Shown: piece after piece, positions 5,872-59,705 of the stretch
How the letters are laid out: each line of letters opens with the position of its first letter
How positions within the stretch are numbered: position 1 is the first letter of the stretch
DNA from: Nitrospirota bacterium
GTDB lineage: Bacteria; Nitrospirota; UBA9217
NCBI GenBank assembly: GCA_021814615.1
Contig: JAKAHZ010000001.1
Coordinates: 31,178-95,177 of the forward strand
Length of the DNA stretch: 64,000 bases
Direction: 5' to 3'
Program-made: the position numbers and the translations under genes
Notes under the pieces: generated by a model
What the model saw: only the letters and a program-made list of their open reading frames with translations
What the model was told of the DNA's origin: nothing
The model's database searches: none

Positions 5872-6693
5872 ATGTCCCGGATCGCAAAACCGCTGGAACT
5901 TTTCAAACACCTTCCCCGCACGAACTGCGGCGACTGCAGGATCTCCACCTGTCTCGCCTTTGCCGCGGCGGTCATCAAGGAAGAGAAGCGGCTCGCCGAC
6001 TGCCCGCACCTGGACCGGGATCTCGTCACGAAGCTGGATGGTTCGATCGAGCGGCAGGTTAACCTGGAAACGATCCAGGAGGACCAGCTGCGGGAATTGC
6101 AGGGAAGGATCGCCGGGATCCCGCTCTCCGGTCGTGCTGCAGCCATCGGCGCAACGATGGGCAGCGGGACGCTCGTCGTCAATTGTTTAGGCAGGAACTT
6201 CGAGGTCGATGCGGCGGGAAACGTGCGGTCCCATTGCCACACCCACCCCTGGTTCTCCCTTCCCCTGCTCGACTATATCCTCACGAGCACGGGAGGCGCG
6301 GCCTCGAACCGGTGGGTTCCCTTCCGCGAGCTCACGCACGGCCGAACCTGGCAGCAGCTCTTCGAGCGGCGATGCGAGCGGCCGCTCAAAGAGCTCGCGG
6401 ACAGCCACAGCGAACTCTTCGACGAGCTGACGTCGCTCTTCAGCGCGGCCTCGTCGGACCGTATGTTCGATGCCGATATCTCCGTTCTGCTCCAGCCCCT
6501 TCCCCGCGTGCCCCTGCTGCTTTGCTACTGGAAGCCCGAGGACGGCATGGAATCGAAGCTCCACCTCTTCTTCGACGCTTCCGCCGAGGAGCACCTGCAT
6601 ATCGAGTCGCTCTTCACGCTCGGCACCGGCATGGTGCGCATGTTCGAGAAGATCATGCTGAAGCATACGGACAAGCGCCTGGAGATCCTGTAG
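5872..6693 (+). CDS. Fe-S cluster domain protein (CFeSP/RnfB-type N-terminal Cx2Cx4Cx16C motif; DUF3786-like remainder)
   Basis: 'NCGDCRISTCLAFAAAVIKEEKRLADCPH' matches the 4Fe-4S motif of corrinoid Fe-S protein large subunit / PF04060-type domains. Confidence 0.55.
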   Translation: MSRIAKPLELFKHLPRTNCGDCRISTCLAFAAAVIKEEKRLADCPHLDRDLVTKLDGSIERQVNLETIQEDQLRELQGRIAGIPLSGRAAAIGATMGSGTLVVNCLGRNFEVDAAGNVRSHCHTHPWFSLPLLDYILTSTGGAASNRWVPFRELTHGRTWQQLFERRCERPLKELADSHSELFDELTSLFSAASSDRMFDADISVLLQPLPRVPLLLCYWKPEDGMESKLHLFFDASAEEHLHIESLFTLGTGMVRMFEKIMLKHTDKRLEIL

Positions 6694-6707
6694 AAGTTCC
6701 TGCGGCC

Positions 6708-7217
6708 CTACCACGCGTTCCGGTGAATGCGGCCCGCATCGAACCGGTCGGCGCGCCCGGGATTTTGCGCAGGGTAGCCGAGCGGAACGAGCGAAAGCGG
6801 AACGACCTCGTCGGGCAGATTGAGGAGTTTTCGGATTCCCGCGATGCGCTCGTCGAAGGGATAGATGGCCGTCCAGACCGAGCCCAACCCTTTCGCCGTG
6901 GCCGCGAGCAGCAGGTTCTCCGTCGCCGCGGAACAATCCTGGACCCAGCAGCCCTTGTATTTTTCGAGCCGCAGGTCCCCGCAGACGAGCACCGCCACGG
7001 AAGCGTGCTTCAGCATGGCGGAATAGGGATGGAACGCCGGGATCGCGTCCAGGATCGTGCGTTCCGTGATCACGACGAAGTGCCAGGGCTGCTCATTCCC
7101 CGCCGACGGAGCAGCCATGGCGGCCTTGAGCAGCTCCGCGACCATACTCTCCGACACGGGTTTGGATGTATACAACCGCACGCTCCGCCTGCCCAGGATC
7201 GCGTCAAAGGTATCCAT
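6708..7217 (-). CDS. Nitroreductase family protein
   Basis: 'RRSVRLYTSKPV...APSAGNEQPWHFVVI' FMN-nitroreductase fold motifs. Confidence 0.75.
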   Translation of the reverse strand: MDTFDAILGRRSVRLYTSKPVSESMVAELLKAAMAAPSAGNEQPWHFVVITERTILDAIPAFHPYSAMLKHASVAVLVCGDLRLEKYKGCWVQDCSAATENLLLAATAKGLGSVWTAIYPFDERIAGIRKLLNLPDEVVPLSLVPLGYPAQNPGRADRFDAGRIHRNAW

Positions 7218-7305
7218 GACTCACCGTCCTTTCCATCTTTCTCGACCAAGACATGACTGTTTCCCTTCGTGATCTTCGTGTCCTTCGTGGTAAATCCGTC
7301 CAGAC

Positions 7306-8376
7306 TCACCGGTCCACAAAACACTGCGGGTCGTCGCTCAGAAAATCGCCTGATCCGCGCGCCAGCGCATCGGCATACGCGATCGCCCTGCAGCCCCTGC
7401 ATTCCTCCCAGTGGCCGCAGGAACCGCATTTCCCCGAATATCTGCTTTTGTCGCGCAGTGCCTCGAGCACCGGCGAGGCCGCCCAGAGTTCGCGCAGCGA
7501 ATGGGTCCGCACATTCCCGATCGGCAGGGGCATGCGGCGGCAGGGAACGACCGTTCCGTCGGCAAGCAGCGTGAGACCCGAAACGCCGGCCGAACATCCT
7601 CCCGAGGGAACCCCGCCCGTCCGGTCGCGTTTGCGCCTGCCGGGATGCTTCATCGACCGTTCCCGCCGGTGCGCGGCTGCAACGGGGTCTCCGGTCACAA
7701 TCTCCAGCCCCGGGATGTCGGTGGCGAACAATTCTTCGTACAAGCTCCTGACCTCCGCGGCGGACAGCATCGCCTGTCCCAGGCCCGCCGCTTTTCCCGC
7801 GGGAACAAGCCGGGAGAATCCCAGGCGCTGGGCGCCGATGTGGGAGGCGAAGCGCACGACCTTCTTCATGCTCTTCGCGTTCAGCCGGGACAATGTAACG
7901 TTCAGGGTCACGGGCACACCCGCGTCGAGCAGATGTTCGATGCCGTCCGACGCCCGTTCGAAACTGCCCGGCCCGCGCACCGATTCATGGATCTCCTCGC
8001 ACCCCTCGATGCTCACCTGCGCGCCTTTCACGCCCAGCTCGGCGATCCGGCGGGCGCGTGTGCGGTCGATGAGCGTTCCGTTCGTCAGGAGAAAGGTCTC
8101 GTAGCTCCGCGCATGCAGCAGGCCCAGCACCTGCTCCAGATCCGGCCGCAGGAGCGGTTCGCCGCCGGTGATGTTGAAGCTCGGCTTGATCGAAACGTCA
8201 TAGGCGCGCCGCCAGGCCCCGAACATCTCGTCGATCTCTTCCAAGGTCTCGTTGATTTCCTCAAGGGAAAGCTCGCTTCCCGGCGTGCCGGTCTGATAGC
8301 AATGCGAGCAGGCAAGGTTGCATCGTTCCGTCAGATGCCACTGGATCAGGAAATCATGGGTTTCGGTCACGGACAT
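7306..8376 (-). CDS. Radical SAM enzyme with C-terminal SPASM domain (peptide/protein-modifying maturase family)
   Basis: Radical SAM 'CNLACSHC' (Cx3Cx2C) near N-terminus; SPASM Cys cluster 'GGCSAG...PC...CGSCGHWEECRGC'; likely start MSVTE with GAGGA RBS (alt ATG at 8415). Confidence 0.75.
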   Translation of the reverse strand: MSVTETHDFLIQWHLTERCNLACSHCYQTGTPGSELSLEEINETLEEIDEMFGAWRRAYDVSIKPSFNITGGEPLLRPDLEQVLGLLHARSYETFLLTNGTLIDRTRARRIAELGVKGAQVSIEGCEEIHESVRGPGSFERASDGIEHLLDAGVPVTLNVTLSRLNAKSMKKVVRFASHIGAQRLGFSRLVPAGKAAGLGQAMLSAAEVRSLYEELFATDIPGLEIVTGDPVAAAHRRERSMKHPGRRKRDRTGGVPSGGCSAGVSGLTLLADGTVVPCRRMPLPIGNVRTHSLRELWAASPVLEALRDKSRYSGKCGSCGHWEECRGCRAIAYADALARGSGDFLSDDPQCFVDR

Positions 8377-8476
8377 GTATCTGTTCCTCGTGTGGGCCAT
8401 CGGAAACGCGTGCATGGCTGTCCGCGTCTTACCGGGAAGATATCCTCCGCTGAGAGACTGCGGAATGTTGATGGAC

Positions 8477-8578
8477 TAAACCTATCACGGAGACAGGGAG
8501 ACCCAGAGAAAAGCAATTTGCATATATGATGATTTATTCAGTGTCCTCAGTGTCTCCGTGGTGATAATCGACTTTTCG
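8477..8578. repeat. ~95-nt hairpin element (copy 1 of 2); inverted repeat cacggagacag.../...ctcagtgtctccgtg
   Basis: Near-identical copy at 59603-59705; long imperfect stem flanking an ~60-nt AT-richer loop containing 'gcaatttgcatatatgatgat'. Confidence 0.7.
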
Positions 8579-8685
8579 ACTTCACCCAGGTTGGACGGAA
8601 AAGAAGAGCAGGGTCCCGCGTTTCCGGCCCCTGCTCCTGATGGTGTTGCCGACCGGCAACAAGAGCGTCAGCTCTTTCAACCCTT

Positions 8686-8784
8686 TCATTTCCTGCAGGC
8701 AGACCCTGCGGGCGCGGCTTTCTTGAGGTTTTCCCAGAGCGCCGCCTCCTTGGCAAGGTCCTTCAGGCTCATCGCCTTCTTCAT
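8686..8784 (-). CDS. Candidate 32-aa peptide MKKAMSLKDLAKEAALWENLKKAAPAGSACRK (possible radical-SAM substrate precursor)
   Basis: Unlisted small ORF found by reading the - strand; strong SD GGAGGTGA 6-7 nt upstream of ATG; same strand and upstream of the rSAM/SPASM gene; not in the >=60 aa ORF track. Confidence 0.35.
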   Translation of the reverse strand: MKKAMSLKDLAKEAALWENLKKAAPAGSACRK

Positions 8785-8903
8785 CCTGTCTCACCTCCCG
8801 TCATCGTCGATATGCATCAATGATAACACAAAACGTAAGGCCGTTGCGTCCTCCGGGAAAGCAGTGATTCACCGGCATCTGCATGGTATAGTGCAGGAGC
8901 GGA

Positions 8904-11333
8904 ATGCGATTCCCCTGTCGGAAGCAGCCGCAGGCCATGACCAAAGAACTGAAGCTCATTACCATCGCGCTCCGCGACTTTGCGCTGCCAGTCCCGCGCT
9001 TTGGAAGCATCGAAGCCCTCTCCGGGTACGGCCCTGCTGCGCGCGAAGGACAGGAGATCCACAGCCGCGTTCAGCGGAAGCGCCGGAAAGCCGATCCAGC
9101 CTACGAATCCGAGGTTGCCGTCAGCCACACCTTCGATCGCGGCGGGTACGGATTCCGGATCACGGGCCGCATGGACGGCATCTTTCATCACGACCCCGCG
9201 AAGATCGAGGAGATCAAGACGGGCTTCGCCATCCGTGAGCTGGCGGCGAGGCTTGCAGCAGACCCTTTCAGCCATCCCTACGGCCTTCAGCTCCTCACCT
9301 ACGGCTATATCCACGGGAAGGAGCAGGGACGCATTCCCCTCCTCTCCTTCCATCTCGTCTCGAGCAGGAGCAAAGACGCGCTCGATCTCCCGATCGCCTT
9401 CGATCTTGCCGCCTACGAACGATGGCTCGACGCCAGGCTGAACGAACTGGTTGAGGAGGCGCGGGCAGCGGAAAAGCGGGCGGCCCGGCGCAGAAAGATC
9501 GCGGCGAGTTTCCCCTTTCCCTTCCCGGAATCCCGTCCCGGACAGCGGGAGATGATCGCAACGATCGAAGAAGGGATCCGGCAATCCCAGCCGATGCTCC
9601 TCCAGGCCCCCACCGGCCTGGGCAAGACCGTGGGTGTGCTCTTTCCGGTGCTGCAGGACGCGCTCGACCGGGGCCAGCGCACGGTCTACGTCACCCCGAA
9701 GAACAGCCAGCACGCTGTTGCCGAGGACGCCGTCAACCGGTTCCACGAAGCGGGAGCGAAGATCAAGTCCCTCACCATCACGGCAAAGAGCAAGATCTGC
9801 TTCCAGAACGAACCGCTCTGCGACCCCGCGTACTGTGAATTCGCAGAGGATTACTACGGGAAGGTCCAGCGCGGGAATCTCCTTGGCCTCCTGGCGCGGA
9901 AGCGGCGTCTCACCGCCCGTGCCTTCCGCAGCCTGGGAGAGGAATACGAGGTCTGCCCTTTCGAACTCCAGCTCGACGCAGCCGTCGAGGCCGATCTCAT
10001 CATCTGCGATTACAACTACGTCTTCGCGCCCCGATCCGCCTTCCGCAGAATCGCGGGCATCGGCGTGGATCAGGAGGGCAGGCCGAACCTGGTGATCGAC
10101 GAGTGCCACAACCTCCCATCCCGGGCCATGGACTACTACTCCCCGTCGCTCTCCACCGTCTCGCTCGAACAGCTCCGGCCGGAGCTCCGCGCCCTGGCCG
10201 CTCCCTTCTGCGCGGAAGCGCAATCCCTGCTTAACGAGTGCATCGGCGTGATCGTTGCCTGCAGGCCGGAAAACACAAAAGCTCCGGCGCGGATCGAACC
10301 TCCTGTCGAAGCGTTCCTCGAACAGGACCTTCGGCTGCGCTCTTTCCTTTCCCGGTATCTGGACCGGAAGGAAGAAATCGAGCGGGGCGATCCGGTCCTG
10401 CGGCTGTGCTTTTCCTGGTCCGAGTTCAGCGAAGCGCTCGCCCTTGCCGCCGATGCCGAGTGGAACGAATTCTTTTTCACCTTTCATCCCTCGGACAACG
10501 GAGGGATCGTCAAGATCACCTGCTGCGACGCATCGGCCATGATAGCGGACCGCTACGACGACTACGAGCAGACCGTCGGGTTCTCGGCCACGTTAAAGCC
10601 CTTCGAATACTATGCCCGGCTCTCGGGACTCGATCCCGGCGGGATCAGGACCGCCGAGTTCGCGAGCCCCTTTGACCGGGAGAACCGCAAGCTCCTGATC
10701 ATCCCGCAGGTCTCGACAAAGTACGCGGACCGGGAGCGGAATTACGGGAAAATTGCGGAAGCTGTCGGCAGGATCGCGGCGATCAGGCCGGGCAATTACT
10801 TTGTCTTCTTCCCGAGCTTCGAATTTCTCGACCGGGTATGCGACGCCTTTCCTGCGCCGGAGGGTTTTCGGATCGTCAGGCAGCACCGGGAGATGAAAGC
10901 CGCGGCGGTCGAAGAGGTCCTGGAGACGCTCCGGGAAGGAAAAGGGCCGACCATCGTCTTCGCGGTCCAGGGCGGGAGTTTCGCCGAAGGAGTGGACTAT
11001 CCCGGCCACATGGCCATCGGCGCCTTCGTGATCGGTCCGCCGCTCCCGGTCTTCGACCTCGAGCGCGAGCTCATGCGCGAGTACTACCAGCGGCAGTACC
11101 GGGCGGGATTTGACTATGCCTACGCTATTCCCGCCATGGCCAAGGCGGTCCAGGCAGCGGGCAGGGTGATCCGGTCGGAAACGGACCGCGGACTGATCGT
11201 GCTCATGGACTCCCGGTTCATCGAGCCGGGCTATGCCCGGTCCATGCCGCGCGACTGGTTCGAATCGCACGCTGGCGAGCTGGTGTCGGAGAGCATTTTA
11301 CAGGAAGTGAAGGAGTTCTGGGAGAGAGGATAA
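8904..11333 (+). CDS. RecB-family PD-(D/E)xK nuclease domain fused to Rad3/XPD/DinG-type Fe-S helicase
   Basis: N-terminal 'GRMDGIF...IEEIKTG' (D...ExK) and 'QLLTY' (QhxxY) nuclease motifs; Walker A 'APTGLGKT', DEAH 'VIDECHNL', four Cys 'CFQNEPLCDPAYCEF...CPF' Fe-S insertion; start may be ATG 8937. Confidence 0.75.
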   Translation: MRFPCRKQPQAMTKELKLITIALRDFALPVPRFGSIEALSGYGPAAREGQEIHSRVQRKRRKADPAYESEVAVSHTFDRGGYGFRITGRMDGIFHHDPAKIEEIKTGFAIRELAARLAADPFSHPYGLQLLTYGYIHGKEQGRIPLLSFHLVSSRSKDALDLPIAFDLAAYERWLDARLNELVEEARAAEKRAARRRKIAASFPFPFPESRPGQREMIATIEEGIRQSQPMLLQAPTGLGKTVGVLFPVLQDALDRGQRTVYVTPKNSQHAVAEDAVNRFHEAGAKIKSLTITAKSKICFQNEPLCDPAYCEFAEDYYGKVQRGNLLGLLARKRRLTARAFRSLGEEYEVCPFELQLDAAVEADLIICDYNYVFAPRSAFRRIAGIGVDQEGRPNLVIDECHNLPSRAMDYYSPSLSTVSLEQLRPELRALAAPFCAEAQSLLNECIGVIVACRPENTKAPARIEPPVEAFLEQDLRLRSFLSRYLDRKEEIERGDPVLRLCFSWSEFSEALALAADAEWNEFFFTFHPSDNGGIVKITCCDASAMIADRYDDYEQTVGFSATLKPFEYYARLSGLDPGGIRTAEFASPFDRENRKLLIIPQVSTKYADRERNYGKIAEAVGRIAAIRPGNYFVFFPSFEFLDRVCDAFPAPEGFRIVRQHREMKAAAVEEVLETLREGKGPTIVFAVQGGSFAEGVDYPGHMAIGAFVIGPPLPVFDLERELMREYYQRQYRAGFDYAYAIPAMAKAVQAAGRVIRSETDRGLIVLMDSRFIEPGYARSMPRDWFESHAGELVSESILQEVKEFWERG

Positions 11334-11682
11334 TGCGAACTATTTGACAGGGATAATACGGATTGACGCAGATTGGCAAAAGTTTGGGTAGGTGCGGCTT
11401 TAGCCGCTCAAACACAGATCGAAACGAAACGAACGGCGAACTGGACACGGATGAACACGGATAAACACAGATTAAAGTGCTGAATAGGCCCTGGATATAG
11501 TAACGCCCTGGGCAGGGGCGGCTTCTGCCGCCCATGGAAAGCTGAAGCCTCCCGGTGTCAGAGCGATCACCCGCTAGTGTATCTGTCCCCGCTCTCTTCG
11601 CGAGAAGAGGTTCTCCGCGGAAGTGGTCCGCCTTTCTCTGCGCCCTGCGGCACTGCAAGAGATGCCTTTGCTTCCGACTGAA

Positions 11683-12687
11683 TCAATGCTCCAGCGTGCC
11701 GACCATGGGGATCAGCCGCTGGTACTGCTCGTAGGGGATCTGGGAATGCCAGTGCCCCGTCGCTACGCCGATGCCGATGACGGCATAGAACAGCGCGACG
11801 AGCAGCACCGCGTACAGCACCGGCTTGAGCACCCGGACGGTCTTCCCGGCCTTCAGGGTGATGTCGAGTGCGCCTTCGGCGGGGCAGCGGCTCACGCAGG
11901 TCATGCAGCCGAAGCATTCCGCGGACGAAACGACCTCCTGCTTCTCCACGTCGATCAAGGTGGGACAGTGCTTGGTGCAGGCATGGCAATGCACGCACTT
12001 CGCGTCGTTCCGCCGCACCTTGACCGGGCTCAGTTTCGACAGGAGGCCCAGGAGCGCGCCGTAGGGACAGAGGTAGCGGCACCAGACATTCTTGTACAGG
12101 AGCGACAGACCGGCCAGGATGCCGATGACCCACATGCTCAAGCTGGACATGTCGGTGAAGAACTTGAGCATCTTCACGTCGGCGACCATGTAATAATCGC
12201 TCATGAAGAACATGACGATCATCGTCGTTCCCATGGCCACGACGATGACCCAGAAGAACGCCGACAGCAGGAGATACTTGATCGCCCGCAAGCCGATGTC
12301 GGTGTACCGCTCGACCCGGAAGTTCCTGCCGAAGATCTTCTCGCCTGCCATCCAGACGTACTGCGAGATCGTGCCGATGGGGCAGATCCAGCCGCAAAAG
12401 CCCTTCTTGAGCAGGAGCGAGACGCCGCAGATCGCGATGAACATGATAAGGCCCGAGGGGTGGAGCGGCTCCACCTGGAAGCTCGCCACAAAATACTTGA
12501 AGGCCATGAGTCCGCCGATGGGCAGGTAGGCGTCCACCGACGGCGGCCGTTCGACAAAGGGCTTGCCGGGCTGCTCGAAATGCTGCACAAAGTGATAGAA
12601 TTGCCATCCCGCGACGAGCGTGATCACCAGGAACAGCGCCTGGACGCCGTAGCGGAGATACCGGAGGGAAGTGCGTGGATAAGTCAT
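11683..12687 (-). CDS. NapH/MauN-type membrane-bound polyferredoxin (4Fe-4S binding protein)
   Basis: TM helices with 'FCGWICPIG' and 'CRYLCPYG' plus two ferredoxin CxxCxxCxxxCP motifs. Confidence 0.75.
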   Translation of the reverse strand: MTYPRTSLRYLRYGVQALFLVITLVAGWQFYHFVQHFEQPGKPFVERPPSVDAYLPIGGLMAFKYFVASFQVEPLHPSGLIMFIAICGVSLLLKKGFCGWICPIGTISQYVWMAGEKIFGRNFRVERYTDIGLRAIKYLLLSAFFWVIVVAMGTTMIVMFFMSDYYMVADVKMLKFFTDMSSLSMWVIGILAGLSLLYKNVWCRYLCPYGALLGLLSKLSPVKVRRNDAKCVHCHACTKHCPTLIDVEKQEVVSSAECFGCMTCVSRCPAEGALDITLKAGKTVRVLKPVLYAVLLVALFYAVIGIGVATGHWHSQIPYEQYQRLIPMVGTLEH

Positions 12688-59578: not shown

Positions 59579-59602
59579 ACGTGATGGACTCGTAAGAATT
59601 CA

Positions 59603-59705
59603 AAACCTACTACTGAGACACGGAGACACAGAGAAAAGCAATTTGCATACATGATGATGTTTCAGTGTCCTCAGTGTCTCCGTGGTGATAATCGACTTTT
59701 TTACG
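59603..59705. repeat. ~95-nt hairpin element (copy 2 of 2)
   Basis: Matches 8477-8578; inverted repeat 'cacggagacacagag...ctcagtgtctccgtg'. Confidence 0.7.

Follow-up and report, generated by a model that had tools for sequence, protein, structure and literature searches.

We describe a two-gene module on the minus strand of a 64,000-nucleotide (nt) stretch of DNA from a Nitrospirota bacterium (GTDB lineage Bacteria; Nitrospirota; UBA9217; NCBI GenBank assembly GCA_021814615.1, contig JAKAHZ010000001.1, positions 31,178 to 95,177 of the forward strand), which is referred to below as the window. The module consists of a short gene whose predicted product is a selenopeptide and, downstream of it, a gene for a radical S-adenosylmethionine (rSAM) enzyme with a SPASM domain that most likely modifies the peptide (probability of this reading as a whole, about 0.65). 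The initial annotation, made from the letters of the window, had proposed a pair resembling the systems for peptides that are made on ribosomes and altered after translation (RiPPs), with a 32-amino-acid (aa) peptide ending in GSACRK. A real, co-conserved gene pair stands; the details given for the product are probably wrong, and the cross-link suggested for it has no support. The product very probably continues through two in-frame UGA codons as ...CRK-U-KG-U-KS, where U is selenocysteine (Sec). Coordinates of the features are given in Table 1.

Conservation of the gene pair

Related loci were collected by a scan of one genome per species, which returned 80 loci, 72 of which held orthologues of the enzyme at 50 to 65% identity. 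Sixty-nine orthologous loci had upstream sequence and were evaluable; the 64 that were positive for the peptide make up, with the window, the 65 loci referred to below. The peptide profile was run against all six-frame stop-to-stop segments of the loci. Orthologues came from Nitrospirota/Thermodesulfovibrionales, “Candidatus Sulfobium,” Geobacteraceae, Desulfuromonadales, Syntrophorhabdaceae, Desulfobacca, and unclassified “delta proteobacteria.”

In 64 of the 69 evaluable loci, which come from Nitrospirota, Geobacteraceae, Desulfuromonadales, and Syntrophorhabdaceae, a same-strand peptide homologue was found 5′ of the gene for the enzyme. This speaks against the refuting condition of the initial annotation, namely, that orthologues lack a conserved small open reading frame (ORF) upstream. 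The gap between the two genes was 23 to 390 nt in 62 of these 64 loci (about 110 to 170 nt in most) and ∼1.4 kb in the other two. The long gaps were rejected as a sign of uncoupling, because transposase genes (IS4-like; integrase-core type) lie between peptide and enzyme in both cases (L047, 4630..5934; L062, 1756..2715). When the look-up was started from the peptide instead, using three database peptides, a gene with Radical_SAM and SPASM domains adjoined at nine of nine places. In the enzyme tree, the peptide-bearing loci form one clade with the peptide-less orthologues scattered inside it, and distant paralogues are without the peptide. No neighbor besides the pair was conserved among the loci compared; flanking genes vary. 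The peptide and the rSAM/SPASM enzyme are an obligate, RiPP-like pair within one enzyme clade.

The peptide gene

An ATG at 8784..8782 (minus strand) opens a 32-codon ORF (8784..8686) that translates to MKKAMSLKDLAKEAALWENLKKAAPAGSACRK and reaches its first TGA at 8688..8686. Both this ORF and the ideal Shine-Dalgarno sequence claimed for it in the initial annotation are present. The ribosome-binding site of the ORF is GGAGGTGA, and a AAAGGAGGTGA Shine-Dalgarno sequence precedes an ATG or GTG start by 5 to 7 nt in essentially all 65 loci. The predicted true stop of the window peptide is the TGA at 8670..8668.

Sixty-two distinct peptide sequences were recovered across the related loci. Their pairwise differences at the three codon positions (0.30, 0.27, and 0.48) are greatest at the third, so the ORF behaves as a translated gene. 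The predicted product, of ∼38 residues, has the consensus MKK..KEAAFW..PGKxC-x-K-U-x-x-U-K-S, in which E13, the Cys, both Sec codons, and the flanking Lys are invariant and A14 and W17 are near-invariant. The small ORF upstream of the rSAM gene is a real, conserved gene, far beyond chance. The initial annotation had read its K/W spacing as a hint of a Lys-Trp cross-link. That proposal was rejected, because the Trp is not invariant (it is Phe in the L046 peptide), while the Cys, both Sec codons, and the flanking Lys are; this pattern points instead to chalcogen chemistry at the C terminus.

In 33 of 65 loci, the peptide gene is preceded by a sigma-70 promoter that agrees with the consensus at 10 or more of its 12 positions (shuffled sequences would be expected to give ∼1.5). 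The same analysis found no clear sigma-70 match upstream of the window peptide gene, and a generic promoter and terminator scan of 7000..9200 reported nothing. Searches of Pfam and NCBIfam with the peptide, either truncated or extended with U replaced by C, matched no family, which agrees with the initial annotation.

Two in-frame UGA codons

Two codons of the peptide gene are TGA in every one of the 65 loci, at a fixed distance from each other (Table 1). The terminal stop lies two to four codons past the second and varies (TGA in 36, TAA in 20, and TAG in 9 loci); it therefore behaves as an ordinary stop, unlike the two invariant TGAs. The bases after the first “stop” are near-identical across lineages, reading TGA AAG GGC TGA AAG AGC T(G/A)(A/G) .. 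GTTGCCGGTCGGCAAC. Codons between and after the TGAs change mostly at third positions (GGC/GGT, AGC/AGT, and AAG/AAA), and insertions and deletions past the first TGA are whole codons, such as a TCA preceding the stop or, in Geobacteraceae, GGA AGC. Per-base entropy keeps a three-base period across both TGAs, over a stretch of 4 to 6 codons whose shortness limits statistical power.

Public calls of the peptide are almost all 34-aa “hypothetical proteins” that end at the first TGA. The only longer public forms are frameshifts or translations with TGA as Trp; P0175 and P0224 are of the latter kind (...CHKWKSWKS), evidently because of an alternative genetic code setting. These public calls lend the Sec reading indirect support.

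A SECIS-like hairpin in the 3′ untranslated region

Just past the predicted true stop, a hairpin resembling a bacterial selenocysteine insertion sequence (SECIS) was found in 64 of 64 aligned loci. Its stem has six pairs, with 99% of cells paired and 39 compensatory double changes spread over four of the six; this covariation was matched by none of 500 shuffles, and controls slid along the alignment collapse. The loop is of the GGUC type in 62 of 64 loci, most often GGUC (30), GGUCA (12), GGUUC (9), or GGUCC (8). The hairpins of L063, L067, and L019 read GTTGCAGGT(C/TC)TGCAAC.

The second UGA stands 10 nt before the stem in 41 of 64 loci, 11 nt before it in another 11, and 16 nt before it in the window; for the first UGA, the spacing is 19 to 20 nt in most loci and 25 nt in the window. 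Escherichia coli favors ∼11 nt between the UGA and the SECIS mini-helix, and in bacterial SECIS models the loop G may lie roughly 16 to 37 nt past the UGA, which holds for both UGAs here. With a Sec three residues from the C terminus, the SECIS must sit in the 3′ untranslated region (UTR); a SECIS placed 3′ of the stop works for C-terminal Sec, as in the design of the plasmid for recombinant thioredoxin reductase (TrxR) used in the study that gives the E. coli element cited below. In the window alone, within 8661..8674 (minus strand), a 6-nt insertion, CGCTCT, separates the SECIS stem from the true stop; this insertion adds a small hairpin, AGAGC-UGAC-GCUCU, and leaves the SECIS two codons farther from both UGAs than in most loci. 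The hairpin of the window is almost identical to the E. coli minimal SECIS GGUUGCAGGUCUGCACC (ggttgcaggtctgcacc; PMC3834832).

The enzyme

Pfam found Radical_SAM (E value, 3.7e-23) and SPASM (E value, 3.9e-10) in the 8415..7306 ORF, confirming that the small ORF lies upstream of, and co-oriented with, an rSAM enzyme that carries a SPASM domain. The identical database protein P0001, from a Nitrospiraceae metagenome-assembled genome, has 356 aa and homologues have 347 to 351 aa, which is why Met14, at 8376, is probably the start. In L081 to L083 (gene 6102..7205 and its equivalents), the rSAM call of 367 aa begins at the first TGA of the peptide and runs through the SECIS region; these starts are probably over-extended.

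No NCBIfam cut-off was reached by the enzyme. Its best score was against AhbD (TIGR04545; 182 bits for a cut-off of 500), followed by NirJ2 (157/500), ACGX (TIGR04340; 156/400), GeoRSP (TIGR04303; 139/400), and SbtM (TIGR04082; 133/350). Among 110 relatives, the cysteines of its motifs are invariant or at least 97% conserved: C19, C23, and C26 (CX3CX2C) in the rSAM core and C261, C279, C317, C320, C326, C329, and C352 in the SPASM region. Anaerobic sulfatase-maturating enzymes (anSMEs) ligate their two auxiliary clusters with eight Cys, and the family described here conserves seven, which would leave one site open or with a non-Cys ligand. An AlphaFold (AF2) model (pLDDT, 89; pTM, 0.88) shows an rSAM core followed by the SPASM domain; its structural neighbors, which are SPASM enzymes that modify peptides, are SkfB, SuiB, PqqE, BlsE, anSMEcpe, CteB (5why), and TigE.

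Hairpins of the intergenic gap

The gap between peptide and enzyme genes has a much more stable predicted fold than its shuffled versions (z = −4.3). The initial annotation had described a conserved hairpin element in this gap of ∼300 bp. The fold is indeed nonrandom; what it consists of is three separate hairpins: at 8660..8645 the one resembling a SECIS, at 8637..8605 one resembling a terminator, and at about 8578..8476 a repeated element, the last of which does not belong to the conserved module.

A strong second hairpin follows the first UGA by ∼40 to 55 nt in nearly all loci. A hairpin with a T-rich tail was counted in 44 of 65 loci, and the generic terminator scan of 7000..9200 flagged none. 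In the window, the stem is followed by UCUUUUCC. A CAGATATG/CATATCTG-type stem core occurs in the second hairpin of 24 of 65 loci, in some with compensatory variants such as CAGACATG/CATGTCTG; such conservation of stem sequence is unusual for a plain terminator. We read the hairpin as a terminator or an mRNA-stabilizing stem that would leave more peptide transcript than enzyme transcript. Its loop varies from ∼4 to 35 nt (examples are L051, L038, L002, L019, and L046, ∼40 to 110 nt after the first UGA).

The third hairpin is a dispersed repeat of ∼100 nt, with a second copy, ∼90% identical, at about 59,600..59,700 (minus strand) of the window. It was rejected as part of the conserved module for this reason, and its insertion accounts for the 309-nt gap in the window. 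It looks like a miniature inverted-repeat transposable element or a repetitive extragenic palindromic (REP)-like repeat inserted in intergenic DNA. Short runs of degenerate tandem motifs, CACGAAGGACACGAAGATCACGAAGG and GGACACGGATGAACACGGATAAACACAGAT, occur in intergenic DNA at ∼7262..7290, adjoining the rSAM stop, and at ∼11440..11470, following the helicase gene. These runs are possibly remnants of related repeats.

TABLE 1 Features of the module and its surroundings in the window (all on the minus strand)
Feature	Position	Strand	Basis or remark
Shine-Dalgarno sequence GGGAGGTGA	8791..8799	−	Read in the sequence; 6 nt 5′ of the peptide ATG
Predicted selenopeptide gene, 38 codons plus stop, MKKAMSLKDLAKEAALWENLKKAAPAGSACRK-U-KG-U-KS-stop	8668..8784	−	Translation, homologues, read-through pattern
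First in-frame UGA, predicted Sec codon, residue 33	8686..8688	−	TGA in 65/65 loci
Second in-frame UGA, predicted Sec codon, residue 36	8677..8679	−	TGA in 65/65 loci, always two codons after the first
SECIS-like hairpin, GUUGCC-GGUC-GGCAAC	8645..8660	−	3′ UTR, just past the true stop; covariation and likeness to E. coli
Terminator-like hairpin, GGAGCAGGGGCC...GGACCCUGCUCU, then UCUUUU	8599..8637 (stem, 8637..8605)	−	Fold, −21.7 kcal/mol
Repeated element, ∼100 nt, terminal inverted repeats CACGGAGACAC...GTCTCCGTG	8476..8578	−	Second copy in the window
rSAM/SPASM enzyme gene, 356 aa from Met at 8376	7306..8376 (longest ORF from 8415)	−	Pfam domains
Nitroreductase-family gene	6708..7217	−	Pfam Nitroreductase (E value, 3.4e-27); directly downstream of the rSAM gene

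Neighboring genes

Genes that recur near the pair vary from locus to locus and include a PEMT/ICMT-like methyltransferase, YceI, a DUF255 thioredoxin-like protein, DJ-1, a thioredoxin-reductase-like flavoprotein, an MqnC/E-like pair, pentose-phosphate genes, and a nitroreductase. As a group, these genes hint that the pair is connected with redox or isoprenoid-quinone metabolism. The PEMT/ICMT-like membrane methyltransferase and YceI are each near the pair in 14 loci, and a pentose-phosphate block, rpiB-gnd-tal-zwf-pgl, lies directly upstream in some; example positions of recurrent neighbors are 7043..7624 in L033, 7086..7625 in L032, 8218..9264 in L031, and 1100..5900 in L084 to L089. No conserved PqqD-like neighbor, protease, or exporter was found in the neighborhoods compared.

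The nitroreductase gene recurs near the rSAM gene in L003 to L006 and L087 to L089 and is absent from most loci. Being confined to one subclade, it was rejected as a core partner; it is possibly accessory there. Another neighbor in the window is a divergent DinG/Rad3-like helicase (8904..11333). The region is flanked by genes for a DUF3786 protein whose N terminus has a CODH/ACS-gamma-like Fe-S motif (5872..6693, plus strand) and for a membrane polyferredoxin of the NapH/MauN type (11683..12687, minus strand).

Weighing of the alternatives

Decoding of both UGAs as Sec, to give a selenopeptide ending in ...C-x-K-U-x-x-U-K-S, is very likely on the comparative sequence evidence, because the two in-frame TGAs are invariant, the final stop varies, coding conservation continues past them, and a SECIS-like hairpin follows. 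Several findings count against the module as we read it, and those that bear on Sec are as follows. No Cys-for-Sec homologue was found in 189 clusters (90% identity) with a profile carrying C at the Sec positions, nor in 123 representatives (50% identity) by an exhaustive profile search, so the criterion of a Sec/Cys pair, common although not defining, is inapplicable. In the 64-kb window no tRNA, and so no tRNA-Sec, was found; the 26 window ORFs scanned gave no SelA-, SelB-, or SelD-like Pfam match; and a search of the window and ∼1 Mb of loci for a second selenoprotein gene returned only peptide genes and chance hairpins, such as one antisense to pyruvate kinase at ∼62,150. The case for Sec use by these genomes comes from the literature and from none of the genes seen here: reviews record selB with a nested selC in Nitrospirae, and a survey of predicted selenoproteins lists two-Sec UxxU motifs and “UXX-star” families with C-terminal Sec (PMC13188914). 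Rfam gave no SECIS, riboswitch, or other credible family, either for the whole window at the gathering threshold or at relaxed E values on 8300..9000 and 8590..8700. One SECIS serving two UGAs 9 nt apart also means unequal spacing, and the 19 to 20 nt from the first UGA exceeds the E. coli optimum. If instead, as in the initial annotation, the peptide stopped at the first TGA (32 to 34 aa, ...C-x-K) and were selenium free, the downstream bases would be an RNA element, for example an attenuator or hairpins that bind a protein, with control over the rSAM gene. The public gene calls, which end there, the missing Rfam match, and the lack of Cys variants proving read-through would all fit this, and CTGAAAGAGCTGAAG, being a short direct repeat as well, might serve as a motif in RNA or DNA. 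We consider this improbable, since an ordinary stop would drift as the third one does, whereas the first two stay TGA and in frame throughout; moreover, the intervening and following codons change mainly at third positions, insertions in the stretch keep to whole codons, and in sequence, GGUC loop, and spacing the hairpin is like a bacterial SECIS. It is more improbable still that the small ORF is a selenium-sensing regulatory leader with a functionless peptide, in which UGA decoding tunes the terminator hairpin and rSAM expression. The order of elements ahead of the enzyme gene, in which an ORF containing two special codons comes first and hairpins and a terminator-like stem come closely after it, would suit such a leader, as would the unusually conserved stem of the second hairpin; leaders conserve only their regulatory codons, however, whereas here purifying selection acts on all 34 aa of the N-terminal part, E13, the Cys, and the Lys are invariant and the Trp near-invariant across several lineages, and the strong Shine-Dalgarno sequence and own promoter suggest a high output of product.

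That the peptide is the substrate of the enzyme is likely, judging from the conserved pairing, and adjacency alone leaves the relation unproven. Also on the negative side, five of the 69 evaluable loci have no peptide upstream of the enzyme gene; neither Pfam nor the model finds an RRE, a domain for peptide recognition, or a PqqD domain in the enzyme, whose rSAM core begins directly; and the best hidden Markov model matches, AhbD and NirJ (NirJ2), are tetrapyrrole enzymes and not peptide enzymes. The last two points would fit a real selenopeptide that is not a substrate. Such a peptide would be a small redox-active or metal-, selenium-, or Fe-S-binding selenoprotein (CxxUxxU) that serves as a partner, reductant, or selenium donor or is merely coregulated, and the enzyme would act on something else, for example a tetrapyrrole or a metabolite related to quinones. 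In selenoproteins, CxxU and UxxU typically serve in redox reactions or metal binding, the variable neighbors have a redox flavor (DUF255, TrxR-like, DJ-1, nitroreductase, pentose-phosphate, MqnC/E-like, and YceI), and conservation extends along the whole peptide, as in a small protein and unlike a leader with a variable core. This alternative is unlikely. The pair is the only conserved unit over very different neighborhoods; the AhbD score is far under its cut-off; a terminator-like hairpin between the genes fits a substrate made in excess of its catalyst, not a stoichiometric subunit; and an RRE is not universal among rSAM/SPASM peptide maturases, since anSMEs, which are without one, do act on short peptide motifs. 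We therefore prefer the reading of a selenopeptide modified by its neighboring enzyme.

Proposed mechanism and product

In the preferred reading of a selenopeptide with its modifying enzyme, the peptide gene would give a short transcript that carries a strong ribosome-binding site, the 38-codon ORF, the SECIS, and the terminator-like hairpin. SelB with Sec-tRNA(Sec), acting on the GGUC-loop hairpin in the 3′ UTR, would decode both UGAs as Sec, and translation would end at the third, variable stop. The hairpin 3′ of the peptide gene would yield an excess of peptide transcript and restrict read-through into the enzyme gene, the usual arrangement with precursor genes. The enzyme may then bind the conserved amphipathic N-terminal helix and act on the invariant Cys/Sec/Sec tail, where a selenolate or thiolate probably ligates an auxiliary cluster and the 5′-deoxyadenosyl radical would abstract a nearby hydrogen. 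The outcome could be C-beta oxidation, as with anSME and SbtM, or Se-C or S-C cross-links, as with PapB and CteB, and we choose neither; the specific chemistry is pure analogy, is put forward with low confidence, and belongs with the points that weigh against the module as proposed.

The absence of a conserved protease or exporter, the redox flavor of the neighbors, and the housekeeping-like conservation favor an intracellular role over an antibiotic, and suggest a redox- or metal-related function rather than a secreted product. Tentatively, the product might be an obligately selenium-containing, peptide-derived redox cofactor or a metal-binding prosthetic peptide, a selenium counterpart of pyrroloquinoline quinone (PQQ) or mycofactocin made by two genes only. 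That speculative picture joins an RRE-less, anSME-like rSAM enzyme performing new Se-C or selenoaldehyde chemistry on a C-x-x-U-x-x-U tail to hosts among anaerobic Nitrospirota, Geobacterales, and related lineages, and to a single 3′-UTR SECIS that would natively recode two UGAs lying close together.

Comparison with known systems

The closest described system in kind is SbtA/SbtM (TIGR04081, “Selenobacteriocin”; TIGR04082, maturase), in which a short precursor with UGA(s) and a SECIS likewise adjoins an rSAM/SPASM gene; it, too, probably has two Sec residues, and it occurs in Geobacter-type anaerobes (PMC9204691; PMC13188914). By a route like that of anSME, SbtM turns Sec or Cys oxidatively into a seleno- or thio-oxazole (PMC9204691). 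The pair described here differs in several respects. The enzyme scores 133.2 bits against a TIGR04082 cut-off of 350 and aligns to positions 194 to 505 of the 516-position model only, without the N-terminal part of SbtM; the peptide misses TIGR04081, and its Sec context is K-U-K-G/S-U-K-S after a Cys, not GGUG/SGUG; and the distribution is mainly in Nitrospirota.

The anSMEs (anSMEcpe, PDB 4K36 to 4K39) share with the enzyme their size, an rSAM core with SPASM, and the lack of an RRE. anSMEcpe and the enzyme model superpose over their full length with a template modeling (TM) score of 0.70 to 0.71 in both directions, at a sequence identity of ∼18%. anSME works directly on a short peptide motif, abstracting the C-beta hydrogen of its Cys, and the Sec chemistry of SbtM has been compared to it; near the pair, in contrast, there is no sulfatase with a C/S-x-P-x-R motif. 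In the SCIFF/CteB/Tte1186 and PapB ranthipeptide systems, as here, an rSAM/SPASM gene adjoins that of a small conserved Cys peptide, and with PapB and Tte1186 a substrate Cys or an introduced Sec binds Fe of the auxiliary cluster on the way to a C-S or C-Se bond (PMC10177961). Enzymes of the CteB/PapB type differ in having an N-terminal RRE and selenium-free natural substrates, and the enzyme described here falls far under the thioether-maturase cut-offs (PapB, 60/340 bits; StsB, 92/625 bits).

AhbD and NirJ (TIGR04545, TIGR04055, and TIGR04051) provide the best NCBIfam matches, with end-to-end alignment, similar length, and no RRE. The scores are 181.9, 157, and 128 bits for cut-offs of 500 to 515; these enzymes, however, act on tetrapyrroles and have no paired peptide gene, and no ahb or nir genes were found near the pair in the neighborhoods compared. 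PqqA/PqqE and MftA/MftC resemble the pair in their tiny conserved precursor adjoining an rSAM/SPASM gene, modification near the C terminus, and intracellular product, and PqqE is a structural match. The PQQ and mycofactocin systems are selenium free and need an RRE protein (PqqD or MftB) together with PqqBCF or MftDEF, whereas none of these is conserved here, and the enzyme is under the cut-offs for MftC (126/265 bits) and PqqE (87/381 bits).

Among selenoproteins, the UxxU and UXX-star families (NF041115, FmdB TIGR02605, NF041114, and NF041211) also have two Sec two residues apart or a Sec three residues from the C terminus (PMC13188914). None of them matches the peptide (with U replaced by C) and none is reported as paired with an rSAM enzyme. 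In term searches of the 2026 table of prokaryotic selenoproteins (PMC13188914), only “Selenobacteriocin” (TIGR04081) is linked to an rSAM enzyme, and no CxxUxxU peptide was found there. No published description of this peptide/rSAM family was found in full-text literature searches, which cover subscription papers incompletely, so that a prior mention is possible. The best reading is that the pair is a distinct, undescribed family, related in kind to SbtA/SbtM, with a peptide that is absent from Pfam and NCBIfam and no match in Rfam.

Significance

SbtA/SbtM is the only described family of rSAM-modified Sec peptides. The pair reported here would be a second, unrelated one and apparently a much more widespread one, with at least 64 genomes from several lineages and 123 to 189 peptide clusters. 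It shows a systematic truncation of small selenoproteins by gene callers and would be a natural case of two UGAs sharing one 3′-UTR SECIS. The lack of any Cys variant implies that selenium itself is needed in the product. As the SECIS is near the E. coli sequence and the system has two genes, the module should be directly testable by coexpression in E. coli. New enzymology of selenium-carbon bonds, or a new cofactor, could thereby come to light in anaerobes of environmental importance.

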